A stretch of 54,969 nt of DNA from an uncultured bacterium (GCA_963997925.1 CAXEOX010000006.1:1-54969); one strand, 5' to 3'; counted from the stretch's first letter, positions 376 to 39,817 are shown. Notes: generated by a model from the letters alone, not told the origin. Made by a program: numbers and translations.

Positions 376-945
376 ATGGCGGAGACTGTAACGGTTAGGG
401 ATATGCGTTTGGTGAATCCCCGGGGGACCGACCTTTCCTCTGGCGAGTTCCACCTGAACGACCGGCCCAGTGAACTCAGCGGCAAGACTCTGGGATTGCT
501 GGAGAACCACAAAGCCAACTCGGACAAAGTTCTTCAAGAAGTGGCTGAGATTCTCAAAGAGAAGTACGACCTTAAAGAGGTGATAATGCTGAGCAAGCAT
601 TCGGCCTCATTGCCCACCAAACCGGAAGTCGTCCAACAGCTTCTGGACAAGGTGGACGTATTAATCACCGGGATAGGTGATTGAGGGTCCTGCAGTTCGT
701 GCAGTGTGCACGACGGCATCGAGATGGAGCGCTTGGGGATTCCCACTGCGTCCATCATCACCCACGTTTTCCTACCCACCGCTAAGGCTATGACTCGCAT
801 GATGGGGGTTCCCGACTATGAGTTCGTGGTCGCCCAGCACCCGCTGTCCAGCCTGACCGACGAGGAATGCAAAGCTCGGGCCGCCGAGATTGCTCCTGAG
901 ATCGAGCGTATATTGGTGGGCAGCACCGCCAGGCAGGCGGTCTAA
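376..945 (+). CDS. UGSC-family selenoprotein (189 aa, Sec at TGA 682-684)
   Basis: ORFs 376-684 and 706-945 are in the same frame. The junction reads ITGIGD-TGA-GSCSSCSVHDG, the U-G-S-C family motif. SD AAGGAGG lies upstream and a SECIS-like hairpin at 697-713. Confidence 0.9.
697..713 (+). promoter_or_regulatory. SECIS-like hairpin (UGSC gene)
   Basis: TCGTGC-AGTGT-GCACGA, with the stem starting 13 nt after TGA. Confidence 0.75.
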
Positions 946-982
946 CTCCCTAACCCCGATCGTGGGGTACAATCAGGCGTCC

Positions 983-1012
983 AAAGGGGCGGCAGAAATG
1001 CCGCCCCTTTTT
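983..1012 (+). terminator. Rho-independent terminator (possibly bidirectional)
   Basis: AAAGGGGCGGCA-GAAA-TGCCGCCCCTTTTT. Confidence 0.9.
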
Positions 1013-1035
1013 CATTCAAATCAAATACGTTTGCA

Positions 1036-1091
1036 TTGAAGGCCAACTGGGCGTGTGGTACCATGAATCCGGTTTGTTACCAAATTCACGA
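1036..1091 (+). promoter_or_regulatory. Sigma70-type promoter with downstream Rex-like operator
   Basis: TTGAAG (1036-1041), 17-nt spacer, TACCAT (1059-1064) with TG extension. TTGTTAC-CAAA-TTCACGA (1074-1091) resembles the Rex consensus TTGTGAA-N4-TTCACAA. Confidence 0.5.
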
Positions 1092-1145
1092 AGTCCGAAA
1101 TTTGGTTCAAACTCCCCGATCAACCTTTGCTTGGGAGCCCCGTAA

Positions 1146-1619
1146 ATGGATGGGCTGAAACCGCGGATAGTCGATGCGATACACCGCCAGTCCCAGCCAA
1201 CTGTTACCGTACTTTCCACCCTTTTAGCCGTTCAGGATGAACTCGGTTTCCTTCCCAAGGAAGCCATCGAAGAGATCGCTGCATTCAACGGTTCGACTAT
1301 CAACGATGTTTGGGCCGTGGCGTCTTTCTATCCCAACTTCCGTTTCGAACCGCCCTGTCTACATAAGGTTGAAGTATGCTGGGGTGCTTCTTGCCATCTT
1401 GTCGGCGCCATGCCGGTGATCGAGGCGGCGCTGGAAGCCAGTGGGCTTGAGGCAGAAGGGGATACTTCCGACGGACGTTTGACCCTGCATTTCAATACTT
1501 GCCTGGGAGCTTGCGCCCAAGCCCCGGTCATGGCCGTCGACCATCGTTTGATTGGGCGTATTACTCCGGATTCCGCCAAGGTAAGAATCGCCACATTGTT
1601 GTCAGAACAGAATGCCTAA
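1146..1619 (+). CDS. nuoE: NADH dehydrogenase/diaphorase subunit NuoE/HoxE-like (2Fe-2S)
   Basis: VASFYPNF, CWGASC...CLGACAQAP thioredoxin-like 2Fe-2S motif. Confidence 0.9.
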   Translation: MDGLKPRIVDAIHRQSQPTVTVLSTLLAVQDELGFLPKEAIEEIAAFNGSTINDVWAVASFYPNFRFEPPCLHKVEVCWGASCHLVGAMPVIEAALEASGLEAEGDTSDGRLTLHFNTCLGACAQAPVMAVDHRLIGRITPDSAKVRIATLLSEQNA

Positions 1620-3345
1620 TTTCGAACAGATCGCTGAAGAAAGCCAGCGGCGTTGGGAAGAACTGACTGTTGGTGGCCAGCCGTGGATCAGAATTGGCAC
1701 GGCCCTGTGCGGTCAAGCCGCCGGATGCGACGACGTTATCGCAGCCATCGAAACTTCTCTGGAGCAGAACGGAGTTTCCGCCCAAGTGAGCCGGGTCGGA
1801 TGCTTGGGCCTTTGTTTCGCCGAACCTTTGGTGGACGTCCAGACTCCCGGTGGGGCAAGAGTCTTTTACGGGAACGTAACTCCAGAGACCGCCGCGGAGA
1901 TTGTGGCGAACCATGTTGCCGGGGGAAAGCCGGTGGCCCACCTTGCGTTGGGTTACCTGGCGGCTGATGGCTCTGATGGTGACGCAGACCCTGCGCTCAC
2001 CGGTATACCCGACCTGAACCAACACCCTATGCGAGTAATGGAGCACCGAGTGGTGCTGCGAAACGCCGGGACCATTGACCCCGGAGACATCCATCAGTAC
2101 ATCGCCAACGGTGGTTACCAGGCCTTGAACCGGGCCTTGACGGAGATGACTCAGGAAGAGGTTCTGGAAGAGGTGAAAACCTCGGGTCTACGTGGCAGGG
2201 GCGGCGCGGCTTTCCCGACTGGGGTGAAGTGGGGCTTCCTTGCCGGGTCTAGTGCACCGCAGAAATACATACTCTGTAACTGCGAAGAAGGAGACCCGGG
2301 AGCCTTCAACGACAAGGCGATTCTCGAAAGCGACCCTCAGACGTTGGTCGAAGGGATAATCCTGGCGGGGTTCGCCACAAACACCAGCTATGCCTATATC
2401 TTCGTTCGGCATGGACATGATGGACCCATCGACCGGGCTCGCGCCGCCATCGTCCAAGCCGAGGAAATGGGTTTCTTGGGCGAGGACATCCTCGGGTCCG
2501 ATTTCAGTTTCCATCTGGAAGTGGCTCTGACCGGCGACTCCTATGTGGCCGGAGAGGAGAGCGCCCTGATGGAGGCCATCGAGGGGAAAAGAGCGATGCC
2601 CCGATTCCGCCCACCTTTCCCCGCTGCGGTAGGTCTGTTCGGTAAGCCTAGCAACATCAATAACGTGAAAACTTTGGCCTCCGTACCGGAGATTATCGCC
2701 AGGGGAGGCGAGTGGTTCGCTGGCATCGGCCACGACACTAGCACTGGGACCGTCATCATTTGTCTTTCCGGAGATCTGAGATATACGGGCATGATTGAAG
2801 TCCCCCTGGGGGTCAATCTGAAAGATGTGCTGTACCAGGCCGCCGGAGGTGTTCCGAACGGAAAAGCGCTGAAGTTTGTGCAAACCGGTGGACCGTTGGG
2901 TGGAGTGCTGGGCGCTGATAACATCGACGTCGTGTTGGACTTTGATATTCTGAGAACCGCCGGCGCTATCCTGGGCTCCGGTGGCGTCATCGCCGCCGAT
3001 GAAGACAACTGCGTAGTGGACCTGACCAGAGCATTGATTGCCTTCTGCCAGTACGAGTCCTGCGGCAAATGCTTCCCCTGCCGTATGGGGATGAGCCATC
3101 TGTTAGAAGTTTTGGAGAGAATCTGCCGTCTGGAAGGCATTCCAGCCGACCTGGACCTGATGCGCAAAGTGGGGCAAGACATGCAGGCAGGCTCTCTTTG
3201 CGGGCATGGCCAACTCGGCTTCAATCCCGTTTCGTCCGCCCTGCGTTACTTCGGCGACGAGTTCGACACTCATATCCTGGACCGACGGTGCCCCACGGGA
3301 GTATGCGCGGAACCCAGGTTCTCGCCGGCCCTGACCCGCCGGTAA
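1612..3345 (+). CDS. nuoF: NuoF/HoxF-like FMN/NADH-binding subunit with N-terminal 2Fe-2S thioredoxin-like domain
   Basis: GLRGRGGAAFPTGVKW, CNCEEGDPG, YVAGEESAL, ESCGKCFPCR...LCGHG. Confidence 0.92.
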   Translation: MPNFEQIAEESQRRWEELTVGGQPWIRIGTALCGQAAGCDDVIAAIETSLEQNGVSAQVSRVGCLGLCFAEPLVDVQTPGGARVFYGNVTPETAAEIVANHVAGGKPVAHLALGYLAADGSDGDADPALTGIPDLNQHPMRVMEHRVVLRNAGTIDPGDIHQYIANGGYQALNRALTEMTQEEVLEEVKTSGLRGRGGAAFPTGVKWGFLAGSSAPQKYILCNCEEGDPGAFNDKAILESDPQTLVEGIILAGFATNTSYAYIFVRHGHDGPIDRARAAIVQAEEMGFLGEDILGSDFSFHLEVALTGDSYVAGEESALMEAIEGKRAMPRFRPPFPAAVGLFGKPSNINNVKTLASVPEIIARGGEWFAGIGHDTSTGTVIICLSGDLRYTGMIEVPLGVNLKDVLYQAAGGVPNGKALKFVQTGGPLGGVLGADNIDVVLDFDILRTAGAILGSGGVIAADEDNCVVDLTRALIAFCQYESCGKCFPCRMGMSHLLEVLERICRLEGIPADLDLMRKVGQDMQAGSLCGHGQLGFNPVSSALRYFGDEFDTHILDRRCPTGVCAEPRFSPALTRR

Positions 3346-3350
3346 AATTT

Positions 3351-3442
3351 GCCACAGAGACACAGAGCAACGGAGATAGAAGATTGAAATCCGTCAGCGA
3401 GGAAATCTTTTCCAGTTCTCCGTGTCTCCGTAACTCTGTGGC
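3351..3442. repeat. Imperfect inverted repeat built from CACAGAG(A) units
   Basis: GCCACAGAGACACAGAGCAACGGAGA (3351-3376) matches the reverse complement of 3417-3442 at 21/26 positions. Confidence 0.75.
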
Positions 3443-3465
3443 CAAAATCCATCGGAGCGATATCC

Positions 3466-6306
3466 ATGGCCGATGACATAACTATCTCCATCGATGGAGT
3501 AGAGATAACTACCCAGCCGGGGAAGATGATTCTGGAGGCGGCGATAGAGGCCGGAGTGTATATCCCTTACCTCTGCTACCATCCCGGTATGAAGCCCTTT
3601 GCGGCCTGCCGGATGTGTGTGGTTGGCGTGGAAGGGGGCCGAGGCTTCCCCGCCGCTTGTGTCCAACCGGTGGCCGACGGGATGAAAGTCCGCAGCGAGG
3701 CCCCCGACGTTCGGGAACTGCGCCGGTCGGTGATGGAGATGCTCCTTGCCGAGCATCCAGACGGATGTCTTACCTGCCACCGTGTAGACATATGCGGACC
3801 GAATGACGTTTGCCTCCGCCACGTGTCGGTCAATGATCGGTGCGTGACCTGTCCCAAAAACGAACGGTGCGAACTCAAGGACACTGTTCGATACCTGGGC
3901 ATGAACCTGGAATCTCCCCTTCAGTACAAATACCGCCAGATTCCATTGGAAGTCGCCGATCCCTTCTACGATAGGGACTACAACCTGTGCATCGTCTGTG
4001 GCCGGTGCGTCCGGGCTTGCGAGGAATTGCGAGGTGACGACGCGATCTGCTTCACGGAGCGGGGCGGCTCTGCCCTGGTTGGCACGTCGTTCGGTACGTC
4101 TCTTCTGGAGTCGGGATGTGAGTTTTGCGGCGCGTGCATCGACGTTTGCCCGGTGGGCGCCTTGGTGGAAAGGGACCACAAGTGGGAGAAAGCGGTCAAG
4201 GTCGAGCGCACCATCTGTCCCCATTGTCCAGTCGGCTGCCAACTCAATCTGGAGATTAACTCGGCAGGCCGATTCATCCGGGCCGTTCCCGACCTCAACT
4301 CGCCCTCGAACCGGGGTCAGGCATGTTTCAAAGGGAAATTCGGCCTGGAATACGTCAATAGCGGCGACCGGTTGCGGAGGCCCTTGATCCGCCGTGACGG
4401 GGAATTGGAGGAGGCCACCTGGGAGGAAGCCCTGGATCTGATATCAACCAGATTGGCCGGATACACTGGCGGCAATTTCGCCATGCTTACGTCTCCTCAA
4501 AGCACCAACGAAGAACATTACCTGGCCCAGAAATTCGCCCGGGTAGTGATGAACACCAACAACGTGGACCAGACATCCAACGTACAACCCGAGTTGGTTT
4601 CTGCGCTGGAAAACGCCTTAGGCTACGCCGCAGCAACCAACTCTATCTGGGACTTGGAGCAATCCGGTTGCATACTGGTGTTCAACTCCAATGTCACTGA
4701 AGAACATAACGTGGTTGGCGTGCCGATAAAGAAGGCTGCCAAACGTGACACCGATCTGGTAGTCATCGACCCGCGGGAAGTGGAGTTGACCCGCTACGCC
4801 GATGTCTGGCTAAGGCCGGTGCCCGGCACGGAACTGCTCCTTCTGGGCGGAGTTCTCCGGTCATTGATCGACCAGGGATTGGAAAAACTCGAATGGATGG
4901 AAGAGAACTGTGAGAGTCCGTCGACGCTCCGGTACGCCCTGCATAACTTGGATATGGACCAGGTTGTCCAGGTAACTCAGGTCTCTCTTGATGACATCGC
5001 AAAGGCTGCCCGCCTTTACGGACAGGCCGAGTCGTCCTCGGTGGTCTATGCTCTGGACAATGTCGCGTCCGATATAAGGCGGGATTGCGTTCGCGCTTTG
5101 ATTGACTTGGTTCTAGTGACCGGAAATCTGGGCAAGCCCGGATCCGGCATCTATCCCATGAGGCAAGGAGCCAACGAGCAGGGCGCTTGGGACGTAGGTT
5201 GCCTACCGGGACGGCTCCCCGGCTACGTCTCGGTCAGAGACGAAGATGCTCGTAAACCATTCGAAGAAGCCTGGGGCATCAGCTTGCCATCCAACCCTGG
5301 CCTTGGGCTGACCGGAACCATCCAAGGGGCTACGGACGGACGTATCAATGCAATGATGGTGATTGGCGACAGCGCTAATTTCACCAATGGAAGGCTGGGC
5401 GACGCCCTGGCAGCCCTGAAAACTCTGGACTTCCTGGTAGTTCAGGATACCTTCCTGAGCCAGGTGACTGAACTGGCTGATGTAGTCTTGCCCAGAGTTA
5501 CTTTCGCTGAGAAAGAGGGCACATTCACCAACTTGGAACGCCGGGTGCAGCGGCTGACACCTTCGATGCAAGTGAAGAACAACGACTCCCGTCCCGAGAG
5601 CTGGGTGATTTGCGAATTGGCCCGCAGGATGGGTGCCTCCGGGTTCGACCACCATTCCCCGGATCAGGTTATGGCCGAGATAGCTGGATTGAGCCCTATA
5701 TATGCCGGAATCTCTTACCAGCGCCTGGAAGAGGAAAGCCGTCTGGTGCTCAGAACTAATCTGGAGAGCCCCCAGCCGACTCAGGTACTCCACGCCAGCA
5801 GGGAGTATCGAGGCATACAGTGGCCCTGTAAGGAGCCCGGCGCTCCCGGCACGGCGACACTCTACGTTGAGGGTTTCCAAGAACGGAAAGCCGACCCCGC
5901 CACTCCCGAATTCCGGGTTACTGAGACACCAGAAGATTCCGAGCATCCATCGGTTCTGGTTCCGGGCCGGGTGTTGCAGCAGAATCGCCGGGATATGGAA
6001 ATCATCAAAGGTAAAAGAAACCGTATTCAAAGGCAGGAGTTGGTGGAGTTGAACTCCGCCGATGCCGCCGCTTGGGCCATCGTTGAAGGAGATGAAGTGG
6101 AGGTACACACCCAGGGAGGCAACCTGACGGGGCAGGCCCGGGTGGTTGATTCTGTCCCGACTGGTGTGGTTTCCGTCACTTCGTTGTTTGGACAGTTAGC
6201 GGTGGACCTACAGGACAGTCAAGACCCTGACCCGGCGTCGAAAGTGCCGGGATTAGATATTCGCCCTGCCAGGGTAGTCAAGGCCGGAGCCAATGGTTCT
6301 GGCTAG
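3466..6306 (+). CDS. NuoG/formate dehydrogenase alpha-like multi-Fe-S molybdopterin-fold protein
   Basis: N-terminal CYHP..ACRMC, His/Cys cluster motif, 2x CxxCxxC ferredoxin motifs, TICPHCPVGC...ACFKG, then molybdopterin oxidoreductase domains. Confidence 0.88.
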   Translation: MADDITISIDGVEITTQPGKMILEAAIEAGVYIPYLCYHPGMKPFAACRMCVVGVEGGRGFPAACVQPVADGMKVRSEAPDVRELRRSVMEMLLAEHPDGCLTCHRVDICGPNDVCLRHVSVNDRCVTCPKNERCELKDTVRYLGMNLESPLQYKYRQIPLEVADPFYDRDYNLCIVCGRCVRACEELRGDDAICFTERGGSALVGTSFGTSLLESGCEFCGACIDVCPVGALVERDHKWEKAVKVERTICPHCPVGCQLNLEINSAGRFIRAVPDLNSPSNRGQACFKGKFGLEYVNSGDRLRRPLIRRDGELEEATWEEALDLISTRLAGYTGGNFAMLTSPQSTNEEHYLAQKFARVVMNTNNVDQTSNVQPELVSALENALGYAAATNSIWDLEQSGCILVFNSNVTEEHNVVGVPIKKAAKRDTDLVVIDPREVELTRYADVWLRPVPGTELLLLGGVLRSLIDQGLEKLEWMEENCESPSTLRYALHNLDMDQVVQVTQVSLDDIAKAARLYGQAESSSVVYALDNVASDIRRDCVRALIDLVLVTGNLGKPGSGIYPMRQGANEQGAWDVGCLPGRLPGYVSVRDEDARKPFEEAWGISLPSNPGLGLTGTIQGATDGRINAMMVIGDSANFTNGRLGDALAALKTLDFLVVQDTFLSQVTELADVVLPRVTFAEKEGTFTNLERRVQRLTPSMQVKNNDSRPESWVICELARRMGASGFDHHSPDQVMAEIAGLSPIYAGISYQRLEEESRLVLRTNLESPQPTQVLHASREYRGIQWPCKEPGAPGTATLYVEGFQERKADPATPEFRVTETPEDSEHPSVLVPGRVLQQNRRDMEIIKGKRNRIQRQELVELNSADAAAWAIVEGDEVEVHTQGGNLTGQARVVDSVPTGVVSVTSLFGQLAVDLQDSQDPDPASKVPGLDIRPARVVKAGANGSG

Positions 6307-6453: not shown

Positions 6454-7221
6454 ATGGTAAGTCAGACAAGCGGAGGAAGCGCTCAATCACCCAGAGTGAG
6501 GGCGGTCCCCAATCTACCCAAAGCGACACTGGTGGAACGTAGGGATATCACAGACGACCTGTTCGTAATCAAACTTGAACCGGAGCAAGGTCCACTTAAT
6601 TTCAAGCCGGGACAATACTGCACCCTTGGACTGGAAGGCATCGAGCGGGCGTATTCCATCGTATCCTCTCCCCACGAGACATTGCTGGAGATATTCGTGG
6701 AGTTGGTTCTCGAGGGCGAACTCACGCCCCGGATGCACCGGATGAATATCGGCGACCAGATGACCATTCGACCCCGTGCCAAGGGTCTCTTCGTCTTGAA
6801 TCAGAAGGTGCATCATCACTTCATGGTCTCCACCGTCACAGGCGTGGCCCCCTCTGTCAGCATGATTCGTAAATATATCAACGACGGCCTTGGCGATCAC
6901 AAGTTCTACGTCCTGATGGGAGCCAGCTATCACGACGAATTCGTCTACGACAAGGAACTGGCCGAGTACGCAGCCAAGTACCCGGAGCATATCCATTTCA
7001 TTCCCACGGTTAGCCGTCCCAATGAAGACAAGAACGCCAATTGGGAAGGAGCCAAGGGCCGGGCGAATGCGATAGCCGAGGAGTATCTGGAAAAGTACAA
7101 TCTACCCAAAGACGACACCATGGTCTACGCCTGCGGTCATCCGGGTATGATTTCTGACGTTAAGGACAGGGTAACTGCCAAGGGGTGGCAATTCATAGAA
7201 GAGCGGTTCTGGAAAGAGTAA
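6454..7221 (+). CDS. Ferredoxin--NADP+ reductase family
   Basis: FKPGQY, RAYSIVS, TVTGVAP, YACGHPGMI, ERFW C-terminus. SD AAGGAG. Confidence 0.88.
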   Translation: MVSQTSGGSAQSPRVRAVPNLPKATLVERRDITDDLFVIKLEPEQGPLNFKPGQYCTLGLEGIERAYSIVSSPHETLLEIFVELVLEGELTPRMHRMNIGDQMTIRPRAKGLFVLNQKVHHHFMVSTVTGVAPSVSMIRKYINDGLGDHKFYVLMGASYHDEFVYDKELAEYAAKYPEHIHFIPTVSRPNEDKNANWEGAKGRANAIAEEYLEKYNLPKDDTMVYACGHPGMISDVKDRVTAKGWQFIEERFWKE

Positions 7222-7255
7222 CTGGCCGCTTGAGACAACTTTTTCAGTCTTATAC

Positions 7256-7285
7256 AACCGGGGGCCGTAAAGCTCCCGGTTTTTT
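7256..7285 (+). terminator. Rho-independent terminator
   Basis: AACCGGGGGC-CGTAAA-GCTCCCGGTT followed by a T run. Confidence 0.8.
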
Positions 7286-7384
7286 GATCCCGGATCGAAC
7301 CTGCCATCATTGCGGTTTTTCGGTATCTATGGAACCGGGGGTGGGGTAGAATGGCTGGAGTAAACCGCTGGGCACGGGTGGATA

Positions 7385-10042
7385 GTGACGCCGATACGCC
7401 GCCAGTACCTGAAGATTAAACATTCCTTCCCTGACGCCATTGTCCTATTTCGTATGGGCGATTTCTACGAGATGTTTGACGAGGACGCTCGAGTCGCCGC
7501 CAGGGACCTGGAGATAACCCTCACCTCTCGAAGCATGGGCAAGGACGTACGGGTTCCCATGGCCGGGTTTCCCGCCCACGCGATGGAGAACTACCTGGCC
7601 CGTCTGGTAAGACGGGGTCACAAAGTAGCGATCTGTGAGCAGCTCACCGACCCGGCCGCCAGTAAGGGATTGGTGGACCGGGGGGTGGTTCGGGTGGTAA
7701 CGCCGGGCACCGTGGTGGAGTCGGCCCTCCTCGACCAGAACTCGAACAACTTCCTGGCTTCGGTTATCCTCGATGGAGACTCGGCCGGATTGGCCTACGT
7801 GGACGTTACCACCGGCGAGTTCGCTGCCACCCAACTTAACCTGGCCCAACTCTCCCCTGAACTAGAACGCGTCGCTGCGGCCGAGGTGCTTTCGCCTCGC
7901 TCGGATGACCCGGATCAGCCCTCCCTTTCCCCATCGTTAGCCGGCAACGGCGGAGGCCCTACCCTTTTGGACCCGGTCTGTTTCGAATACGAAGCCGCCC
8001 GCTCTGCTTTGCTGGACCACTTTGGGGTTGCGTCACTGGAGTCTTTCGGGTGCCAGGACCTGCCCTTGGCTGTCCGGGCCGCCGGGGCCATCGTAGACTA
8101 CTTGGGGCAGACACAAAAGTCGGGCAAGCTTCAGCTATCCAATCTGGCTGTTTACTACACCTCGGAGTTCATGGCTCTGGACAGCCAGACTCGCCGCAAC
8201 TTGGAGCTATTCGCCGCTGGCCGGGCTGAAAACAAAGACTTGTCCTTGCTGGCTACCCTGGATCTGACCAGAACCCCCATGGGCGGCCGGTTGTTGCGCC
8301 GTTGGCTGGGTCAACCGTTGCTTGAACTGGATGATTTGAACCGCCGTCTGGACTCGGTCGGATATTTCCACGACGACGGCTTTCGTCGGTCCAATACCAC
8401 CGCGCTTCTCTCCCACATCCCAGATATGGAGAGAATCTTGGGCCGGATAAATGCCGGGCTGGTCGCTCCCCGGGAGTTGCTGGCATTGAAGGAAGGCCTG
8501 GATGCCGTTCCGGGACTGGTGGAACAACTCTGCGCCCCTCTTGTAGGATCGGATGCGGAGGCCGGCAGCGGTGAAACCGGTTCGGATGAAACGGGTTCCA
8601 TGGATTGGTTAAGCCGGGAATTGTCTCCAATCCCGGAAGCCGCCGCCCTCATCGAAAGCTCCATAGCTGCTGAGCCGTCGGGCGCGGTGGGTGAGGGCAA
8701 CGTGATTCGGCAAGGCTTTTCGCCGGAGTTGGATGAACTGAAGCGAGCCTCCCACGACGCTCGGGGATTTATCGCCGGATTGGAGCAGAAGGAGCGTGAA
8801 CGCACGGGGTTGAGGGGCCTGAAAGTCGGCTACAACCAGGTGTTCGGCTACTACATCGAAGTAAGCAAAGCCAACGTGGCCCAAGTGCCCGAGGAATATA
8901 TCCGCCGCCAAACCCTGGTCAATTCCGAACGCTACATCGTTCCGGAGTTGAAAGAGTACGAGTCACTGGTGCTGAACGCCCGGGAGCGCCTTGATGAACT
9001 CGAGAAATCGCTTTACCGTCAGATATGCGGCCAGATCAGCGAGTCAGGATCGGCGATATCCCGCTTGGCCACCGCCATCGCCCAATTGGACGTCTTTGTC
9101 AGCCTAGCGGAAGTGGCGATGCGCAACGACTACGTCCGGCCGCGCCTGGACATGGGCGGCGTCATCGACATCAAGGATGGGCGCCATCCGGTGGTTGAGG
9201 GTGTGCTGGGACCGGGCGACTACGTACCCAACGATGTCTATCTGTCCAACGATGATGCCCGGATAATCGTTCTTACAGGGCCTAACATGGCGGGGAAGTC
9301 GACCTTCATCCGGCAGGCGGCTATCATCACCTTGATGGCCCAGATCGGCAGCTTCGTGCCTGCGTCCCAGGCCGTCATCGGATTGGTGGACCGGATATTC
9401 ACTCGGGTGGGGCTACAGGACGATCTGACCACTGGCCAGTCCACCTTCATGGTGGAGATGGTGGAGACGGCGGCTATATTGAACCAGGCCACTCCACGGT
9501 CCTTGGTGGTGTTGGACGAGATTGGACGGGGCACCAGCACCTATGACGGCATGTCCATCGCCCAGTCGGTGATTGAGCATCTGCACAACGACCCGCGACT
9601 GGGTTGCAAAACCCTTTTCGCCACCCATTATCACGAGTTGACCCAACTGGCCGGCACTTTGCCGGGAGTACGCAACTTCACCGTCGCAGTCGCGGAAGAG
9701 GATGGCGATGTCATCTTCCTGCATCGGATCGCTCCAGGGGGCGCTGACAAGAGCTACGGCGTTCACGTCGCCCGGTTAGCTGGTTTACCCAGTGGCGTAG
9801 TCAACCGGGCCTGGGAGGTGCTCTCCGAACTGGAGGAGAGTAACAACAGGGACGGTCGTCCCATCGGCAAGAAGAGCCGCCGGGACCGGACTCCGGACCT
9901 CCAGATGGCCTTATTCAACCCGGCGCAAGCCCTGGCCGACGAGGTCAAGGCGTTGGACATACCCAACCTAACACCTTTGGAGGCCATCAATCGTCTCTAC
10001 GACTTGCAGCAGAAAGCCCGGAACCCTGGGGATAATGTCTAG
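7385..10042 (+). CDS. mutS: DNA mismatch repair protein MutS
   Basis: FRMGDFYEMF, TGPNMAGKST, DEIGRGTST, FATHYHEL, SYGVHVARLAGLP. Confidence 0.97.
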   Translation: MTPIRRQYLKIKHSFPDAIVLFRMGDFYEMFDEDARVAARDLEITLTSRSMGKDVRVPMAGFPAHAMENYLARLVRRGHKVAICEQLTDPAASKGLVDRGVVRVVTPGTVVESALLDQNSNNFLASVILDGDSAGLAYVDVTTGEFAATQLNLAQLSPELERVAAAEVLSPRSDDPDQPSLSPSLAGNGGGPTLLDPVCFEYEAARSALLDHFGVASLESFGCQDLPLAVRAAGAIVDYLGQTQKSGKLQLSNLAVYYTSEFMALDSQTRRNLELFAAGRAENKDLSLLATLDLTRTPMGGRLLRRWLGQPLLELDDLNRRLDSVGYFHDDGFRRSNTTALLSHIPDMERILGRINAGLVAPRELLALKEGLDAVPGLVEQLCAPLVGSDAEAGSGETGSDETGSMDWLSRELSPIPEAAALIESSIAAEPSGAVGEGNVIRQGFSPELDELKRASHDARGFIAGLEQKERERTGLRGLKVGYNQVFGYYIEVSKANVAQVPEEYIRRQTLVNSERYIVPELKEYESLVLNARERLDELEKSLYRQICGQISESGSAISRLATAIAQLDVFVSLAEVAMRNDYVRPRLDMGGVIDIKDGRHPVVEGVLGPGDYVPNDVYLSNDDARIIVLTGPNMAGKSTFIRQAAIITLMAQIGSFVPASQAVIGLVDRIFTRVGLQDDLTTGQSTFMVEMVETAAILNQATPRSLVVLDEIGRGTSTYDGMSIAQSVIEHLHNDPRLGCKTLFATHYHELTQLAGTLPGVRNFTVAVAEEDGDVIFLHRIAPGGADKSYGVHVARLAGLPSGVVNRAWEVLSELEESNNRDGRPIGKKSRRDRTPDLQMALFNPAQALADEVKALDIPNLTPLEAINRLYDLQQKARNPGDNV

Positions 10043-10414: not shown

Positions 10415-10768
10415 ATGAGCAAAACCGCCTCTTTTTATTGGTGGCCCCGTTGATCGTCTTGCCGCAAGGTAAGAGAGTTGCTCTTACAGAACGGCGTTCA
10501 GTTGGAGGAAAGGGACTACTTCAAAGACCCCTTCTCGGAATCGGAGATTCGGGAGTTGGCCCAAAGCGATAGCATCTCCGCCATGTTTGCCCGCCGCAGC
10601 CCTAGCCTCAAAAAGCTGGGGTTGGCCGACAAGGAGTTGTCCGAAGAGGAGATGGTGTCTTTGATGCTGCAAGAGCCGCGATTAGTGCGACGTCCCTTGG
10701 TACTCATGGATGGAAAGTTGCTGGTGGGGGCCAACATCAAGGCGGTGGAGGCAGCCCTGGCGGAATAG
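10415..10768 (+). CDS. ArsC/Spx-like thioredoxin-fold selenoprotein (117 aa, UxxC, Sec at TGA 10451-10453)
   Basis: GGAGG SD, then ATG 10415: MSKTASFYWWPR-TGA-SSCRKVRELL, continuing in frame into ORF 10478-10768 (RDYFKDP...EPRLVRRP). Confidence 0.88.
10469..10487 (+). promoter_or_regulatory. SECIS-like hairpin (ArsC/Spx-like gene)
   Basis: GTAAGAG-AGTTG-CTCTTAC, a perfect 7-bp stem starting 16 nt after TGA. Confidence 0.7.
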
Positions 10769-14752: not shown

Positions 14753-16084
14753 TTAGTCTACCGGCTCACCGGCGTCTTCTAGAACCATTCTGGCTACCTG
14801 CCGTCCCATGCGCACCGAATAGTTGGTGCCCCGGTCTTCGGGATAGATCTGGGTCGTGTTCGCCAGATACAGGTTCTTGATGGGCGTCCGGTGGTCCGGG
14901 ATACGCTGGCTATAGTTGATGCCGATGATTGGCTGGGCGCCGTCCACCTTGTGGTGGTGATACTCCAGTATCCATGAAGGGTCGAAATCGGGGTTGAGTT
15001 GGCGCAGATGGGGGGTAAACTCTGCCACCAACTCCTCGGCGCTTTTCTGATACAACTCGCTGTCCCGGTCGGGGTAGTTAGTGAGGTAGACGATGTGGTG
15101 TCCCCCATAAAGGGACCGGTCAATCATGTTGGTGTGCTCAATGATTCCAACAAAGGGGAGATCGTGGTCGGCTATGCTTATCCAATACTTGTCGGTCAGC
15201 GGCCGGTCCAGAATCAGAATGACCAGCACTGCCGAGAGGTATTGGACGTTCACCAACTTGTCGTGGTAGTCATCGGGCAAGTCCGGAACCAGGCGGGTAA
15301 AGATGTAAGAGGGAGTCGTTGCGATGATGGCGTCGTAGTTTCTGGGTTCAGCTTCTCCGTCCGAAAGCTGTACTTCCAATCCGGTGGCGTTGTTGTCTTC
15401 GACCAGTACCCGGTTGACCCCGGCGGATAGATGGACATCGCCGCCTTGCTGAGAGACTCGCTCCCCCAGAACGTCAAAAACCTCGCCGAAGCTTCCCATG
15501 GGGTAGCCTAGACGCTCTTTAGCCATACCCTTGCCCCGGGAGGCGACCCGGAGGTAAATCTTGCCCCAGATCCAAGTCATGCTGACTTGATCGTAGTAAT
15601 CGCCGAACTTGCCCCGTAACAGCGGCTCCCAGATAACCCGGTAGGCCTCGGCGCCCATGTGCTTCACCAGCCAGTCCCTGGCCGTTACTCCTTCGAACTT
15701 GCGCCAGTCCTTAGTCTTTTGCAGCAAGAAGGTCCAGAACCCCACCCGGATCCGCTGGAGCAGTGACAGGGGCTTGAACCGCATCAGGTCCATGGGCGTG
15801 CCGAAATTCCATATCGTTCCGCCGTGATATAGTCCCACCTTTGATTCCAGCCAGGCCAGCTTGTCACCCAGTCCCAACTCGTGAATCAGGTCGGTGATGG
15901 CCACGTCGCTGACGAAAAGGTGGTGGTAACCCCGCTCCAGTTGGCCACCTCCCACCGGGAAGGTCGAAGCCTGACCACCCAAGAAGGGAGTTCGCTCGAA
16001 CACTTCGGCATAATGGCCGCGCTTCGTCAGCTCATAGGCCGCAGCCAAGCCCGCCGCCCCGCCGCCGATGATTCCTACTCTCAT
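14753..16084 (-). CDS. FAD-dependent oxidoreductase (protoporphyrinogen/amine oxidase-like)
   Basis: MRVGIIGGGAAGL...FE...GG, ERGYHH, IYPEDRGTN. The ATG overlaps the upstream stop (ATGA). Confidence 0.85.
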   Translation of the reverse strand: MRVGIIGGGAAGLAAAYELTKRGHYAEVFERTPFLGGQASTFPVGGGQLERGYHHLFVSDVAITDLIHELGLGDKLAWLESKVGLYHGGTIWNFGTPMDLMRFKPLSLLQRIRVGFWTFLLQKTKDWRKFEGVTARDWLVKHMGAEAYRVIWEPLLRGKFGDYYDQVSMTWIWGKIYLRVASRGKGMAKERLGYPMGSFGEVFDVLGERVSQQGGDVHLSAGVNRVLVEDNNATGLEVQLSDGEAEPRNYDAIIATTPSYIFTRLVPDLPDDYHDKLVNVQYLSAVLVILILDRPLTDKYWISIADHDLPFVGIIEHTNMIDRSLYGGHHIVYLTNYPDRDSELYQKSAEELVAEFTPHLRQLNPDFDPSWILEYHHHKVDGAQPIIGINYSQRIPDHRTPIKNLYLANTTQIYPEDRGTNYSVRMGRQVARMVLEDAGEPVD

Positions 16085-17175
16085 GGTAGTTCTTCCAATG
16101 GCGGACCGCTCCATTCCGCGTCAGGCTCCGGTTCTGGTACATCGCCGGCTCCGATGAGTTGCTTGATGGATAGATTCTGCTTCCACGCCAATGCCAATCC
16201 GAGTAGATTCACCGGCAGCCATAGGGCTATCAGGTGTACGAATCCGGCATAAGCGGCCCCAACCGACGCTCCGACACCCATGGCCAAAAGTGTTTGCTGG
16301 GCCACAACTTCAAAGGGCCCGATGCCGCCGATGGCCGAGGGGAGCGACGTCGCCAGGTTTGATGTGGCGGTCAGGAGCAGAACGACCAGGATAAAAGTCC
16401 AGACGGAACCGAAGAGTTGGTCGATCCCGAAGGAATAGCCAATCAGGAAATAGGTGGAGGCTTCAAACAGCCAGACCGGAAGGGAAAAAAGGAAGAGAGC
16501 CATGTGCTGCTTTGGCGAACTTAGCACCTTCAGTCCCGCGACGAAGGTGAGCACCAGTCCTTGCACTTGGCTCCTACCCCACCGGGCCGGGATTATCCCG
16601 GTGCACCATTGGACGAGATCCATGAATCGCGGGACCACGGACAGACAGGTTAGAAATCCTAATGCCCCCAAGAATAGGGCCACCATCAACCCGCCTATCA
16701 ATACCCATGCGGTACGGGAAAGGCCGCCGCCGCCGTCGAGCTGACCTAGCAAGAATAGGACCGGCGCTGAAACGGCGGCAAAGGCCAGAAGGGTTACACC
16801 GTCGTAGACCCGCTCCACGGCGATGGTGGCCAGGGCTGCGCTGGTGTTGAAATTCTCCCTCTGGGCCAGGTAGTAGGAGCGGACCAACTCGCCCAACCGG
16901 GCGGGCAGCAGGTTGTTGGACATGTAACCGATGACAATGACCGGATAGAGCCGGCTCACCGGGAAGGTCCGCATGGGAGAAAGCAGGTATTTCCACCGTA
17001 GGCTGCGGAAGTAGACGGCCACGAAATACAGAGCGATGGCTGGAGCTACGTAGAGGTAGTTGGCCTCCAGAAGGGCGATGCGAATCTCCCCCAGGTCCAC
17101 CTGGTAGAGCAGCAGCAACATAAACAGGGCGCTAACCGCTAGAGCGACCCAGAACCGCCAGTTATTAACCAGCAA
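16081..17175 (-). CDS. Lysylphosphatidylglycerol synthase TM / flippase-like membrane protein
   Basis: RSLRW, NNLLPARLGELVR, ERVYD, PSAIGGIGPFE. Multiple TM helices. Confidence 0.85.
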   Translation of the reverse strand: MLVNNWRFWVALAVSALFMLLLLYQVDLGEIRIALLEANYLYVAPAIALYFVAVYFRSLRWKYLLSPMRTFPVSRLYPVIVIGYMSNNLLPARLGELVRSYYLAQRENFNTSAALATIAVERVYDGVTLLAFAAVSAPVLFLLGQLDGGGGLSRTAWVLIGGLMVALFLGALGFLTCLSVVPRFMDLVQWCTGIIPARWGRSQVQGLVLTFVAGLKVLSSPKQHMALFLFSLPVWLFEASTYFLIGYSFGIDQLFGSVWTFILVVLLLTATSNLATSLPSAIGGIGPFEVVAQQTLLAMGVGASVGAAYAGFVHLIALWLPVNLLGLALAWKQNLSIKQLIGAGDVPEPEPDAEWSGPPLEELP

Positions 17176-23493: not shown

Positions 23494-24228
23494 TTAATCT
23501 TCTGATGCGCCAGGAATTGGGAAGGTCCTGCTCAAGGCGTCTCGGGCGGCGGCCTTTTCAGCGTCGGAGCGCCGCCCCCCCTGGCCGGTGCCGGAGACCT
23601 CTCCATCGACCAGAACCTCGACGGTGAAAAGAGGGTTATGGTCCGGTCCTTCGCTGGACGCCAGACGGTACTTGGGAGTGGATAGGCCGATGGCTTGGAC
23701 GCGTTCTTGAAGTCCGGATTTGGGGTTATCGGGAGGGGCGCCTTGCAGGGAGATCTGCTCCAGTTCCGGGTCCAATTGTTGGGCCACGAAGCAGCTTGCC
23801 TGTTCGTAACCTTGGTCCAGATACACCGCCGCCACCACCGCCTCAAAAGCTGCCGCAAGGATGGAATCCCGCTGGCGGCCTCCCGTGGTCTCCTCGCCTT
23901 TGCCCAGCAGGATGAAATCCCCTAGGTTCAGACGACGGGCCACTTTAGCCAAGCTATCACCCCGTACTAGAGATGACCGGAGCTTGGTCAGGTCTCCTTC
24001 GTTAAGGAGCGGAAAACGCCGGAATAGCTCCGTCGAAACGGTTAGCTCCAACACGGCGTCTCCTAAGTATTCCATACGCTCGTAGGAATCCTCAGGCTGC
24101 CCCCCCTGTTCGTTCAGGAGGGACCTATGGACTAAAGCTTGCTGCAACAGCGCCGGGTCTCGAAACTTCAAGCCCAAAGCGGATTCCAGGCGCTGTCCAG
24201 TCAAAAGCTCTTCCTTAGAGGACCCCAT
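23494..24228 (-). CDS. rnc: Ribonuclease III
   Basis: ERMEYLGDAVL signature and C-terminal dsRBD. Confidence 0.95.
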   Translation of the reverse strand: MGSSKEELLTGQRLESALGLKFRDPALLQQALVHRSLLNEQGGQPEDSYERMEYLGDAVLELTVSTELFRRFPLLNEGDLTKLRSSLVRGDSLAKVARRLNLGDFILLGKGEETTGGRQRDSILAAAFEAVVAAVYLDQGYEQASCFVAQQLDPELEQISLQGAPPDNPKSGLQERVQAIGLSTPKYRLASSEGPDHNPLFTVEVLVDGEVSGTGQGGRRSDAEKAAARDALSRTFPIPGASED

Positions 24229-24847
24229 GGGGCCAGGGCGGCTGCGGGCGCTTGAGTTCGCCCACGTGAACGAATTCGCTCATGGTTTTTACCAGTGAAT
24301 CGTATATCTCAGCGGCTTGCTCGTCCGGGGGAATGAACATCTTTAGGAAAGCAGCCTTGCCTTCCCCGAATACGAAGGTAGGCACTCCAAAGGCCCCAAC
24401 CTCTTCGATGGCCTTGGTGTGACTCTCGCCGATCTCTCGTAGCAGATCAGGATCGGACTGGTCCTCGCGGAAGCGGGCCATGTCCAAACCGGCTTTGATA
24501 GCGGCTTCTTCCATGACTGCCGGGTCGAGGAGGTCCTTTTTGTCTTCGTGACGAGCCTTGAGCAGGGTGATAAAGAAGGACTCAAAAGCCTCTTTGCCCT
24601 GGCGCTTGGCTGCCAGGCCGGACCGGTGAGCCAAGAACGTATGGTCAGAGCCGTCCAGATGTTCCGGCTGCTCCCATAGCTTGATGTCGTTCTCTTTGTC
24701 GCTGTTTACTTGGGACAAGGAGAAGGGCTGCCAGTCGACTTCGACTGTTTCTCCTTTGGAATCCTCCACTTTTGCCAGCCACATGGCGGCATTGTACACG
24801 AAGGGTCAACGGAAATCGTAATAGGTCGTGAAATTAGCCTCTGCCAC
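24215..24847 (-). CDS. DsbA/Rv2466c-like thioredoxin-fold selenoprotein (210 aa, Sec at TGA 24808-24806)
   Basis: AGGAGGT SD, then GTG 24847: MAEANFTTYYDFR-TGA-PFVYNAAMWL, in frame with ORF 24799-24215. Has the GVPT cis-Pro loop and a C-terminal ELKR. Confidence 0.87.
24773..24791 (-). promoter_or_regulatory. SECIS-like hairpin (DsbA-like gene)
   Basis: mRNA UGCC-GCC-AUGU-GGC-(U)-GGCA, starting 15 nt after UGA. Confidence 0.65.
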
Positions 24848-34121: not shown

Positions 34122-34128
34122 GGTTAGT

Positions 34129-34164: not shown

Positions 34165-34226
34165 TGCCTTCGCTGAGATTGTTGGCGGGGTGGGAGTTGT
34201 CTTTGGATGGGTAATGATTGGCATGG

Positions 34227-34991: not shown

Positions 34992-35055
34992 GCCGTCATG
35001 ATACAGGAAGCCCTAACCCTGCTCCATTATCTTAGCGGTCTCGTGGCTATGCATC

Positions 35056-35154
35056 CGTCATTCCGGCGAAGGACGGAATCCAGAGATGCCTCGCTGCTAA
35101 AAGGCGCGGACCTTCCATCCCGCTAACTGGATTCCCGTCTGCACGGGAATGGCG
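35056..35154. repeat. dRS3/RPE-like palindromic repeat pair
   Basis: CGTCATTCCGGCGAAGGACGGAATCCAG ... CTGGATTCCCGTCTGCACGGGAATGGCG. Confidence 0.65.
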
Positions 35155-35295
35155 ATGGGGGTTAATGCTAAACCCTGTCATTCCGTCCCGCGCCGGGGTG
35201 ACGCGGTTATTCCCTGATGCGGGTTCCGAGTTTGCCGCTAGTGCAAAGCGGCCCAGTATGCGCGTCCACGGGAACATAGCTGAACCGCTCAGCGA

Positions 35296-36555: not shown

Positions 36556-36830
36556 ATAGTTCCTCCATAGGCGGTCGAGCGAATCACGTTTCGCTAGCTT
36601 CGCCGGTTTCCGTGATGCTAAAAGACCCTGTCACCCCTGTCAAGAGATTTGCGGAGGTGGTTATCGGAATCTGCCTGATGGGCGAATGTTCGCTGTTCGG
36701 GCTTTTCGTCAAACCGGGTGTTTTGCGGCTAGCTAACGTAGAGTGGCGATTGGGTATAATCCAGAGTAGGGTAGATGTGGGTATGGGGCGGCGGCCTTCG
36801 TGCCCACCTCAAGCCACTTGGGGATATGGA

Positions 36831-37853
36831 ATGAAAATGCCTCACTTATCCCGTCTCATCGGGTCGATCTCAGCCTCATTAATGCTGGTTATGGGACTTG
36901 CTTGCTTCTCCTCTTCTTCCAACGCGATTGTGTACGTATCTTCGGTCGATGGAGACACGGAAGTGCTTCTGCTTGACGCGAAATCCGGTGAAAGCGTCTC
37001 TTTGACCAACAACGGCAGCGCCGATTATGGCCCCCGGTTGTCTCCAGATGGAAAGCAGATAGCGTTTCTGTCCGACGAATCCGGAGACTTGGAAATCAAT
37101 GTGGTGGACCGGAAGGCCGAAACATTGATCCGGTTGACTCACGAAGAGGGCGATGACCTTTCACCCAGGTGGTCGCCCGATGGCGAGCGGCTGGCCTTCA
37201 TATCCCATCGTGACGGCCAACCAGAGGTGTATCTGATGAACGCCGATGGGAGCAGTCCCACTCGTATCACATCCAACTCCAGCGAGGAATTCCTGGGAGA
37301 TTGGTCCCCGGACGGTGTGTGGCTGGTCTTCAATGTTTTGGGCGGCGAGGAAGAACGGGGTCTTTGGGTGCGCAACCCTGACGGTGTGAACCTGGTCCGT
37401 TTGACGACTGGTCTTGATTATTCGCCCCTCTTTTCCCCCGACGGTCAACGCATCGTTTTCGTTCGGGGAGAGGGTGGCGAGGAAGAGATTTACACCCTTA
37501 GTAAGCTGAAGAGAAGGACCTGGCAAGATGAACCCGAGTTGACTCGTTTGACCCAGAACGACGTTTCGGACCGGACGGCTTCTTGGTCTCCCGACAGCAA
37601 GTCCATCGTCTTCGTTTCCTCCCGGGATGGTAATTCCGAGGTTTACACCATGCGCGGCGATGGGTCCAAGCAGGTCCGGTTGACCAATAATGAGGTGGAA
37701 GACCTGACGCCGGTCTGGTCCCGGGACGGCAAACGTATCGCTTTTGTATCCCATCTATACGGAGAAGGAGAAATCTTCGTGATGGGATCCGATGGAATCA
37801 ATCAACTGCGCCTGACCAATAACAGTTCCGAAGACCAGTCTCCCAACTGGTAG
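36831..37853 (+). CDS. TolB-like PD40 beta-propeller lipoprotein
   Basis: Lipobox GLAC and about six repeats of P.WSPDG..IAF.S...G..EIY...RLT. Confidence 0.85.
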   Translation: MKMPHLSRLIGSISASLMLVMGLACFSSSSNAIVYVSSVDGDTEVLLLDAKSGESVSLTNNGSADYGPRLSPDGKQIAFLSDESGDLEINVVDRKAETLIRLTHEEGDDLSPRWSPDGERLAFISHRDGQPEVYLMNADGSSPTRITSNSSEEFLGDWSPDGVWLVFNVLGGEEERGLWVRNPDGVNLVRLTTGLDYSPLFSPDGQRIVFVRGEGGEEEIYTLSKLKRRTWQDEPELTRLTQNDVSDRTASWSPDSKSIVFVSSRDGNSEVYTMRGDGSKQVRLTNNEVEDLTPVWSRDGKRIAFVSHLYGEGEIFVMGSDGINQLRLTNNSSEDQSPNW

Positions 37854-38083
37854 GGTTCGACCGCTCCTATCCCTGCGTCATGACGAACAGACTTCTTCCG
37901 AGTTTCCTGCCAGTCTCGGGGGCAAGCTCATTGACAGTTTGATGATGAAACCATGAGCCGGGTTCCTTCGTTATGTATATATATGAGGGCCGACCACCAC
38001 TCCAGGCAGAATTCGCCGCCAATCAGCCCCGCTAACTCCCCCTGACCATTCCTAGACCGCAACTGACGCTTTGTTCATAACTT

Positions 38084-39817
38084 ATGGGTGATTTGGGATC
38101 GAGGGTGCGAATGTTAGCAACAAACCCAGAAGACCGTGCTTCGACGAAGATTGGTATAAAGCTCGGAGGAATCTTGTCGGTAACTCTGTCCTTGGCCGTC
38201 GGCTTGGCCTGTAGCTCTCCGGCGTCACCAATCGTCGATGTCCCGCCGCCTGAACCGGCTCTATCCTCCCTTCAGTGCGACCTGCCCAAGTCCAAGAATC
38301 GCCGACGTTGACACCCACTTTCTTAGTAGCAAGTGACGGACTGCGTGTTATTGATGCCAGTCAACCGCTGCCACCTACCGTCGGCCCGAAGCTCTCCAAT
38401 CCTGGAAATCTCGCCTACGATGCCCTGATGGCCGCCGCCCTGGATTCCTTACCCCATTTCAACCGCCTGGGCGACGACTCCGGAGTGTCCAGATTCGGGC
38501 GGGTACCGGTTAACCTGGACCAGGTGGCGGGGCAGATGGTGGATTCCGGTGACATCGCTTACGCGCCGGTCCTGATAGATTTTCTGAGGATGCAGCTTTA
38601 TTACGAAGGGCGCACCACCCTGAGTTCCTACCTTGAACAGCTTGTTGGCAGTGAAGAACAACCGGACATTGATGAGCAGGGCGAATGGAAGTTATGGAGC
38701 GAGTGGCTGGGGAGCCACCCTGAGATTGAGCCACCCCAAGGCTACGCCGCATGGAAGGGACGGTTCCTAGCCCACATCGACCCGGAAATGGGAGCCTTCT
38801 TCTACGAAGGCGTGAAGACCAGGATACGATTGGAGGCGGCGGTTTGGGGAGGGGTGCCCAAAGACGGGATACCGGATCTGATTAACCCGCCTGCGGTGAC
38901 CCCTCAGGATGCTTGGTACATGAATCCCACTGACCGGGTATTTGGTATTTCCATAAACGGGGAACACCGGGCCTATCCTCTGCGGATCTTAAACCCCCAC
39001 GAGATGGCAAACGACGTTCTGGGCGGCGAGCCGATCGCTCTGGCCTATTGAACTCTCTGCGGTTCTGGAATCGTGTATTCCACAAAGATAAATGGAAAAG
39101 TCTTGAGCTTTGGTACGTCGGGCATGCTATATCACAGCAACAAGCTGATGTACGACCGGGGCACCAAATCCTTGTGGCATCAGTTCTTGGGCGAGCCGGT
39201 TGTAGGTCATTTGGCGGACAGCGGCACGAAGCTTGATCTGATTCCAGTCACCCTCACCACCTGGATAGACTGGTTGGCGATCCATCCAGACACCACCGTC
39301 CTGGACATAAAAACCGGGGTGTATCCAATCACCAGCTATTCGCCGGAAGATGACCTGCAATCGATATATTTCCGCTACCGAAACACTCCGGTGACAATAT
39401 TCCCCGTTCCCGAACGCGCCGATGTTCTGGAGACTAAATCTCAAGTCCTAGGGTTGACCTTGAACGGGAAGTCCATCGCATACCCTTTGGAGTTGTTGTC
39501 CCGGCGGCTGGTGGTTAACGACACTTTGGGTGGCCAGGATTTGGTTGTCGTTGCCACAGATCGGGGAGTCGGCGCTAGGGCTTATCAAAGAAAAACTCAT
39601 GAGTTCTCGCTGCTGCTGACCGGGCCTGAGGACGGGAGTCTCATCTTGACCGATCTGAATGACCGGCGGTGGCGGGTTGAGGAAGATGCGCTGGTCCTGC
39701 TTGAAGACCCGCGTCAACGATTACTACGGCTCCCCAGCCGGGCTTCCTATTGGTTCGGATGGTACCGTTTTCCATCCCGATACTCAGATTTATGCTGGCT
39801 TGGATGACGCCCCCTAA
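38084..39817 (+). CDS. DUF3179-family lipoprotein, selenoprotein (Sec at TGA 39049-39051), with two apparent frameshifts
   Basis: GGVPKDGIP, RAYPLRIL, HEMAND, LAY-TGA-TLCGSG, FGTSGML, MYDRGTKSLW. The signal peptide (GLAC) and the conserved FHPDT tail lie in other frames. Confidence 0.75.
39066..39082 (+). promoter_or_regulatory. SECIS-like hairpin (DUF3179 gene)
   Basis: TGGAAT-CGTGT-ATTCCA, starting 15 nt after TGA. Confidence 0.7.

Follow-up and report, generated by a model that had tools for sequence, protein, structure and literature searches.

Four probable selenoprotein genes with bacterial-type SECIS hairpins in a marine Dehalococcoidia genome

How a TGA codon inside a bacterial reading frame is decoded is a question that a single contig from an uncultured bacterium raises four times over. 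This contig (GCA_963997925.1 CAXEOX010000006.1:1-54969), referred to here as the window and analyzed over its whole length of 54,969 nucleotides (nt), carries genes of the UGSC, ArsC/Spx, DsbA-like and DUF3179 families, each interrupted by an in-frame TGA within a thiol-redox motif and each with a short hairpin just downstream. A preliminary description, made from the sequence alone, had read the four as cryptic selenoproteins, in which UGA encodes selenocysteine (Sec), and had proposed that their hairpins represent a lineage-specific, minimal form of the selenocysteine insertion sequence (SECIS). The answer reached here is a plainer one, as the four are very probably ordinary bacterial selenoprotein genes, with SECIS elements of the established type, in the genome of a marine member of the Dehalococcoidia (Chloroflexota).

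The window forms contig C6 of a metagenome-assembled genome (MAG) of 3.54 Mb, with 279 contigs and a completeness of 95.5%, whose closest named relatives are marine Dehalococcoidia/Chloroflexota MAGs. In the mechanism proposed for the four genes, UGA would stand in for the nucleophilic Cys of the thiol-redox motif. SelD would supply selenophosphate, SelA would turn Ser-tRNA-Sec into Sec-tRNA-Sec, and SelB-GTP would bind the apical loop of the in-gene hairpin (the bacterial SECIS, or bSECIS), predicted to begin 16-27 nt downstream of the UGA in this genome, and would then deliver Sec-tRNA-Sec to the ribosome.

In-frame TGA codons at redox-active cysteine positions

Translation with TGA read as Sec (U) places the four in-frame codons and the redox motifs around them where the preliminary description had put them (Table 1). 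Each TGA lies within one single Pfam domain, with in-frame coding potential on either side. The UGSC protein matches Pfam PF24696 over residues 12-181 (193.2 bits), and belongs to the family described by NCBIfam model NF041046, 'UGSC family (seleno)protein', as it exceeds the cut-off of that model (149.7 bits, cut-off 125) and contains the U-G-S-C motif. The ArsC-like protein matches PF03960 (69.5 bits, cut-off 24) and the Spx/MgsR subfamily model TIGR01617, the latter at 76.4 bits and so barely above its cut-off of 75.05. Its score against NF041106, 'ArsC family (seleno)protein', is 30.3 bits where 85 are required, and it therefore falls outside that NCBI subfamily. The DsbA-like protein is recognized by PF01323 (64.8 bits, cut-off 25.6) and PF22234 (44.3 bits), and residues 196-499 of the DUF3179 protein by PF11376 (241.2 bits, cut-off 27). 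No NCBIfam model gave a score for either of these two proteins, so that their genes are invisible to annotation by family models. Under translation table 11 all four genes are truncated or split at the TGA, and annotation of the Sec codon is needed for each to be represented correctly.

Table 1. Coordinates of the four genes, their TGA codons and hairpins, and a frame shift in the DUF3179 gene (window positions)
Feature	Position	Strand	Description
UGSC-family selenoprotein gene	376..945	+	189 aa, U103; PF24696, NF041046
Sec-UGA of UGSC gene	682..684	+	in frame, context GIGD-U-GSC
UGSC SECIS hairpin	697..713	+	7 bp with loop GUG, or 6 bp with loop AGUGU
ArsC/Spx-family selenoprotein gene	10415..10768	+	117 aa, U13, motif U-S-S-C
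Sec-UGA of ArsC-like gene	10451..10453	+	in frame, context WPR-U-SSC
ArsC-like SECIS hairpin	10469..10487	+	7 bp, loop AGUUG
DsbA-like (Rv2466c-like) selenoprotein gene	24215..24847	-	210 aa, U14, D-x-x-U-P
Sec-UGA of DsbA-like gene	24806..24808	-	in frame, context DFR-U-PFV
DsbA-like SECIS hairpin	24773..24791	-	7 bp and one bulged U, loop AUGU
DUF3179 selenoprotein gene	38275..39817 (end approximate)	+	~513 aa, U259, U-T-L-C
Sec-UGA of DUF3179 gene	39049..39051	+	in frame, context AY-U-TLC
DUF3179 SECIS hairpin	39066..39082	+	6 bp, loop CGUGU
T4 run with +1 frame shift in DUF3179 gene	39768..39771	+	from comparison with orthologs

The UGA codons align with Cys or Sec of homologs. A search for Cys homologs at these positions had been proposed in the preliminary description, and U was indeed found to fall on Cys in solved Spx proteins, in the structure PDB 7dk9 and in DUF3179 paralogs. 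Specifically, U13 of the ArsC-like protein occupies the column of the first Cys of the CxxC motif in solved Spx proteins, and in the DsbA-like protein U14 falls on the sole active-site Cys of 7dk9, of which 7dka is the Cys-to-Ser variant. The genome encodes four DUF3179 paralogs, and the same column is occupied by TGA in two of them (the window gene included) and by Cys in the other two. All eight UGSC paralogs in the genome have TGA at the U column.

Forty related genomes from the same genus, family and order were searched for matches to the four genes. An in-frame TGA is present in 50/50 UGSC matches at E<=1e-40, which come from 26 of these genomes, and a single TGA is found in all 33 ArsC-like matches. 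The DsbA-like gene has one TGA in 36/38 matches, the two exceptions being the most distant ones, and one in-frame TGA occurs in each of the 26 full-length DUF3179 matches at 50-100% identity. Weaker, paralogous DUF3179 matches in the relatives include both TGA and stop-free (Cys) forms. Across the four genes, the codon is retained in orthologs at identities as low as 40-50%. Together with the family matches and the alignment with Cys, this conservation supports the earlier claim that the TGAs are Sec codons at redox-active Cys positions.

The same data bear on the view that the TGAs represent genuine termination codons, lesions of pseudogenes or errors of assembly, with downstream frames that arise by chance or belong to separate genes. 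This view can point to one likely assembly error in these very genes, the frame shift at 39768-39771, and to same-frame neighbors that do yield false candidates in this genome, namely at position 43590 of the window, in 8 of 20 additional candidates and in candidates C63 and C113 (all described below). However, single Pfam domains cover each TGA, coding potential is found on both sides, and the retention of TGA in the same column (26/26, 33/33, 36/38 and 50/50) refutes it, leaving it with next to no probability.

The frame shift in the DUF3179 gene consists of an extra base in the T4 run, 15 codons from the gene end, which puts the conserved C-terminal F-H-P-D-T-Q-I-Y in the +1 frame. The orthologs are unshifted in 11/11 cases and read to a conserved end of the form W-F-G-W-Y-x-F-x-P-x-T-x-[VI]-[YF]. 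The shift is probably an assembly error, or else a very recent lesion.

The window has one more in-frame TGA besides these four, at position 43590, which was rejected as a Sec codon. It is the true stop of a small gene and is followed by a second small gene in the same frame. These two small ORFs (open reading frames) occupy 43323-43997, between the ORFs called nuoC and nuoD in the preliminary description, where small genes look unexpected; the first of the pair stops at TGA 43590, and the second shows a likeness to HicB/UPF0150-type antitoxins, judged by eye alone.

Selenocysteine machinery and selenoproteome

The preliminary description had proposed to look for selA, selB, selD and a selenocysteine tRNA (tRNA-Sec), and this machinery of bacterial Sec-UGA recoding is present in the genome, with tRNA-Sec as a contig-end fragment only. 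The genes selA (560 bits), selB (352 bits) and selD (392 bits) all score over their cut-offs, and selD has an in-frame TGA of its own. The candidate for tRNA-Sec is an 83-nt fragment at the end of contig C30, located through weak Rfam tRNA-Sec matches together with inspection of the anticodon loop. Its anticodon is UCA, its variable arm and D-stem are both long, and its 3′ side is lost to the contig end; it is read as a tRNA-Sec gene that was incompletely assembled.

TGA is at the same time an ordinary stop codon of this organism, as had been claimed earlier. It terminates 13 of the 46 well-scoring ORFs of at least 120 aa in the window, and a gene for release factor 2 (RF2), prfB, is found in the same genome (445 bits). 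Genome-wide, the 2470 well-scoring ORFs of at least 150 aa end in TAG in 1109 cases (45%), in TAA in 805 and in TGA in 556 (22.5%). Since TGA ends ORFs in both sets, the code is the standard one with local recoding. TGA is thus the rarest stop and TAG the commonest, which is unusual for a genome of 57% GC, and the scarcity of TGA among stops could reflect its avoidance in a Sec-rich organism. The prfB gene (6630-7655) shares contig C28 with selA (15390-16730), at a distance of ~8 kb.

Decoding of the UGAs as Cys or another standard residue, either by a Cys-charged tRNA resembling tRNA-Sec or by near-cognate readthrough, gains some room from the truncation of the tRNA-Sec gene, which leaves its identity elements only partly checkable. 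Against this stand intact selA and selD genes, a conserved UGA within selD itself, the presence of RF2 in a genome where TGA ends 556/2470 well-scoring ORFs, and the restriction of these UGAs to positions of catalytic Cys, with SelB-type hairpins that are under selection behind them. Such decoding is accordingly highly improbable. We infer that the residue inserted at these codons is Sec and no other, and that SelB reads the hairpins behind them.

The four genes belong to a much larger set. The genome was scanned for in-frame TGAs flanked on either side by coding potential, using a dicodon score because a codon-usage score alone proved too weak, and candidates picked by peptide motif were then compared with Pfam. 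A family match spans or abuts the TGA in 31/33 of these motif-picked candidates. Two further candidates, a ferredoxin-thioredoxin reductase and a single-domain rhodanese, are also supported. With the window four, selD and the eighth UGSC paralog, the well-supported Sec genes number 39, or 40 with a GrdB-like paralog that has no Pfam match and is included only in that higher count. The figure is a lower bound, because the first filter missed the DUF3179 site as well as the UGSC paralog on contig C12. The large selenoproteome foreseen in the preliminary description is thereby borne out. Other Sec families in the genome are GrdA, GrdB, deiodinase-like, Prx-like, SelW/Rdx, OsmC-like, rhodanese, CMD/AhpD-like, BtuF-like CxxU, MerB-like and ferredoxin-thioredoxin reductase, all of which are listed in published selenoprotein tables (PMC9312934; PMC13188914).

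The window genes lie 10-15 kb apart and form no common operon, within a block that is syntenic in the genus. Four Sec genes in 55 kb compare with ~0.6 expected from 40 genes per 3.54 Mb (Poisson p 0.004), a modest local excess. The eight UGSC paralogs sit on contigs C2, C6, C7, C12, C20, C87, C141 and C259. On C141 the ORF runs ~390 residues beyond the domain, as a fusion or as a same-frame neighbor.

Several other sites were less clear. Among 40 candidates compared with Pfam, no family was found for C160, C212 and C3; C63 and C113, whose Pfam domain lies wholly to one side of the TGA, were rejected, and so was C126, whose KaiC-like domain abuts it. In a DUF4349 protein (C199:2943-4139) the TGA lies within the domain in the context N-M-T-V-U-V-P-Q, with no visible redox motif, and DUF4349 was not found in the selenoprotein table searched; its status as a Sec codon is uncertain. 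None of 20 additional candidates was convincing by Pfam. In eight of them (L115, L120, L121, L128 and L130-L133) unrelated domains flank the TGA, most likely marking two genes in the same frame, while seven had no family and three had a domain on one side only. In a D-2-hydroxyacid dehydrogenase (C95:5910-6908) and a Thioredoxin_10 protein (C12:32090-33166) the domain spans the TGA at a place where Cys is not expected, and for these TGAs (the latter at C12:32954) a lesion, a sequencing error and a non-canonical Sec site are all conceivable. In the Prx-like Sec gene L066 (C131:4888-5583) the AhpC-TSA match ends after residue 181 and the remainder is unlike the family, which may reflect another assembly frameshift.

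Hairpins downstream of the TGA codons

Folding places a hairpin behind each of the four TGAs where the preliminary description had drawn one, at spacers of 12-15 nt, and all four recur when the 60 nt from the TGA region are folded to minimum free energy. In the UGSC gene the spacer is 12 nt and the loop begins 19 nt past the UGA, with a local energy of -12.4 kcal/mol. The corresponding values are 15 nt, 22 nt and -15.7 kcal/mol for the ArsC-like gene, and 14 nt, 21 nt and -8.9 kcal/mol (computed with an alternative loop) for the DsbA-like gene. The DUF3179 hairpin has a spacer of 14 nt and a loop that begins 20 nt past the UGA. The four stems share no sequence, as had been noted earlier, and for this reason the covariance model originally proposed was replaced by explicit counts of hairpin patterns, compared with those after true stops.

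Variation among orthologs indicates that these structures are maintained. When codon variation was scored only at columns with an invariant amino acid, the minority-codon fraction was 0.10-0.16 in codons overlapping a hairpin vs 0.30-0.35 outside. In the ArsC-like stem-loop, six codons across 13 orthologs contain 4/78 minority codons, each of which preserves the pair as G-U, and the synonymous sites flanking the hairpin vary. The DUF3179 hairpin is kept in 12/12 orthologs, two of which carry a U-A to C-G compensation at the stem base; minority codons in this stem-loop amount to 2/60, again with the pair preserved as G-U. Among the UGSC paralogs, a compensatory change from C-G to G-C is found at one hairpin pair, with the register unchanged. 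The DsbA-like loop is GUGU in 9/14 rows of the alignment, and AUGU is confined to the window, three genomes of the same genus and L103, which makes the AUGU loop of the window gene a local variant. The stem of this element is altered in three relatives, L102, L110 and L111, where the bulged U becomes paired. The synonymous sites of the hairpins are thus shown to be under purifying selection, with compensatory or wobble-preserving changes present.

Two sets of counts address how specific such hairpins are to Sec codons. The strict pattern comprised a stem of at least 6 bp with at most one bulge, a loop of 3-6 nt containing GU, and a loop start 16-26 nt past the TGA. It follows 56/700 TGA stops of ORFs of at least 200 aa (8.0%), 156/1994 TAA/TAG stops (7.8%) and 1881/19924 random TGA trinucleotides (9.4%). 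All four window sites match it; the p value of ~4-8e-5 is a post hoc one, the same four sites having served to define the pattern. Outside the window it is found at 17/29 Sec candidates, which had been selected on their peptide motif before any look at structure (binomial p 6e-11). The second set applied consensus-type criteria to 39 sites, namely the window four, selD and 34 others, with the GrdB-like C212 included and the C12 UGSC gene left out. In 39/39 sites the loop of the best consensus-type hairpin begins 16-27 nt past the UGA, and its energy is no higher than -7.5 kcal/mol in 37/39. By the same criteria, hairpins were found at 101/300 true TGA stops (Fisher p 5e-14) and at 110/300 out-of-frame TGAs in coding sequence (Fisher p 6e-13). 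After Sec codons, then, hairpins of this kind are strongly enriched and constrained in position, yet they are far from specific. The comparison with true stops proposed in the preliminary description was accordingly split in its outcome: the enrichment at Sec sites (37/39) favors the reading as SECIS elements, but such hairpins are common after genuine stops, and for that reason a hairpin alone cannot identify a Sec codon. In practice, a search for hairpins only would be badly unspecific in this genome, with the motif behind 8-37% of control TGAs depending on strictness.

The geometry of the hairpins may be compared with what is published for bacteria. In the bacterial SECIS consensus the apical loop measures 3-9 nt and the upper stem 4-16 bp, loop position 1 or 2 (or both) is G and mostly has G or U after it, the loop lies 16-37 nt from the UGA, and the energy does not exceed -7.5 kcal/mol (PMC13188914). 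The E. coli element has as its core an upper stem-loop of 17 nt, 11 nt away from the UGA, in which U17, G23 and U24 are critical (PMC8659212). In the window, loop sizes (3-5 nt), stem lengths (6-7 bp) and distances from UGA to loop (19, 22, 21 and 20 nt) all fall within the consensus, and three of the four loops have the G. Set against the limit of -7.5 kcal/mol, the energies are -12.4, -15.7, -8.9 (alternative loop) and -4.3, though the local-hairpin calculation used here differs from the published one.

These comparisons leave little room for a new, lineage-specific minimal SECIS class of the form UGA-N12-15-stem-N(G)UGU-stem, distinct from known bacterial SECIS elements, as the preliminary description had proposed. 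Some features do lean toward it: the loops of 39/39 sites begin 16-27 nt past the UGA, in the low part of the published range of 16-37; the stems are short, with a GU loop on a stem of at least 6 bp in 17/29 independent sites; and the DUF3179 hairpin is kept in 12/12 orthologs in spite of its -4.3 kcal/mol. However, loop length, stem length, spacing and the G[G/U] feature lie within the general consensus (PMC13188914), and the geometry is that of the E. coli minimal element (PMC8659212). Furthermore, many validated Sec sites in the same genome have loops of other kinds (GGC, GGA, GGU and further ones without GU), so that N(G)UGU is no rule even here, and canonical SECIS elements are present in 87.4% of the entries of the selenoprotein database BSepDB (PMC13326102). 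The claim of a separate class is thus not supported, and the class is very improbable.

A narrower version holds that the SelB of this lineage accepts an unusually small and weak SECIS within a narrow window, with the loop 16-27 nt past the UGA. It is suggested by the 6-bp hairpin of -4.3 kcal/mol and by the loop that has no G at its first two positions, and it is unlikely, if somewhat less so than a separate class. If it were true, the low sequence cost of such an element could ease the conversion of Cys to Sec, and could explain both the expansion of the selenoproteome (with Sec in 8/8 UGSC paralogs) and the under-use of TGA as a stop. That the narrow positional window and the weak DUF3179 hairpin together reflect SelB requirements tuned to the lineage is likewise unlikely.

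The reading as ordinary selenoprotein genes has to be held against several observations that weigh on the other side. Folding z-scores over 60 nt are unremarkable (UGSC 0.09, ArsC-like -1.97, DsbA-like -0.77, DUF3179 -0.09), and an Rfam scan of the whole window at gathering thresholds returned 0 matches. The hairpin motif is frequent after genuine stops (8% by the strict pattern, 34% by consensus criteria). The DsbA-like loop of the window, AUGU, has no G at its first two positions, and the DUF3179 hairpin, at only -4.3 kcal/mol, misses the published limit of -7.5. As for the tRNA, ARAGORN reported 37 tRNAs in the genome with tRNA-Sec not among them, and the Rfam tRNA-Sec model gives the C30 fragment 39.2 bits where its threshold is 47. 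Even with these points counted, four ordinary selenoprotein genes remain by far the most probable reading.

Comparison with known selenoproteins and SECIS elements

The novelty suggested by the word cryptic does not stand, as all four families appear in published selenoprotein tables: the UGSC-containing protein, DUF3179 (UxxC/T), the arsenate reductase-like protein (UxxC) and DsbA-like form 2 (DxxUP) (PMC9312934; PMC13188914). The families are catalogued, the SECIS elements are canonical and a large Dehalococcoidia selenoproteome is documented, so that all three are already known. Scientifically, the result confirms existing knowledge and raises no new question. Literature searches found nothing that joins SAR202 and selenoprotein, and for Dehalococcoidia together with selenoproteome they found the BSepDB paper only. 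The ten bacteria richest in selenoprotein genes in that database reach up to 63 such genes, and two of the ten are Dehalococcoidia MAGs, at 49 and 46 (PMC13326102); the genome studied here has ~39-40.

At the level of the proteins, the UGSC gene shows nothing notable that would set it apart from its family, as it exceeds both curated cut-offs and bears the U-G-S-C motif that gives the family its name. The ArsC-like protein shares the fold family of the known ArsC-like selenoprotein (COG1393, UxxC), with U in place of the first Cys of CxxC, and differs in that it misses NF041106 and just passes the Spx/MgsR subfamily cut-off. The DsbA-like protein belongs with DsbA-like form 2, since it matches PF01323 and its D-F-R-U-P fits the published DxxUP (PMC13188914). 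It agrees with 7dk9, the solved homolog nearest to it, in having one active-site residue only and in lacking a resolving Cys at +3. The DUF3179 protein belongs with the DUF3179 selenoproteins through its PF11376 match and a U-T-L-C motif that fits UxxC/T; it has the full-length domain and U-x-x-C likewise, but differs in an N-terminal extension of ~195 aa before the domain and in the 3′ frameshift.

At the level of the RNA, the hairpins resemble the bSECISearch consensus and the E. coli fdhF element in their place within the coding sequence, immediately 3′ to the UGA, and in three of the four G is followed by U at loop positions 1-3. Unlike the fdhF element, they have no obvious extended lower helix, and the bulged U of E. 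coli has a counterpart in the DsbA-like element only. The departures from the published consensus are the DUF3179 hairpin, which is weaker than the energy limit, and the AUGU loop of the DsbA-like gene.

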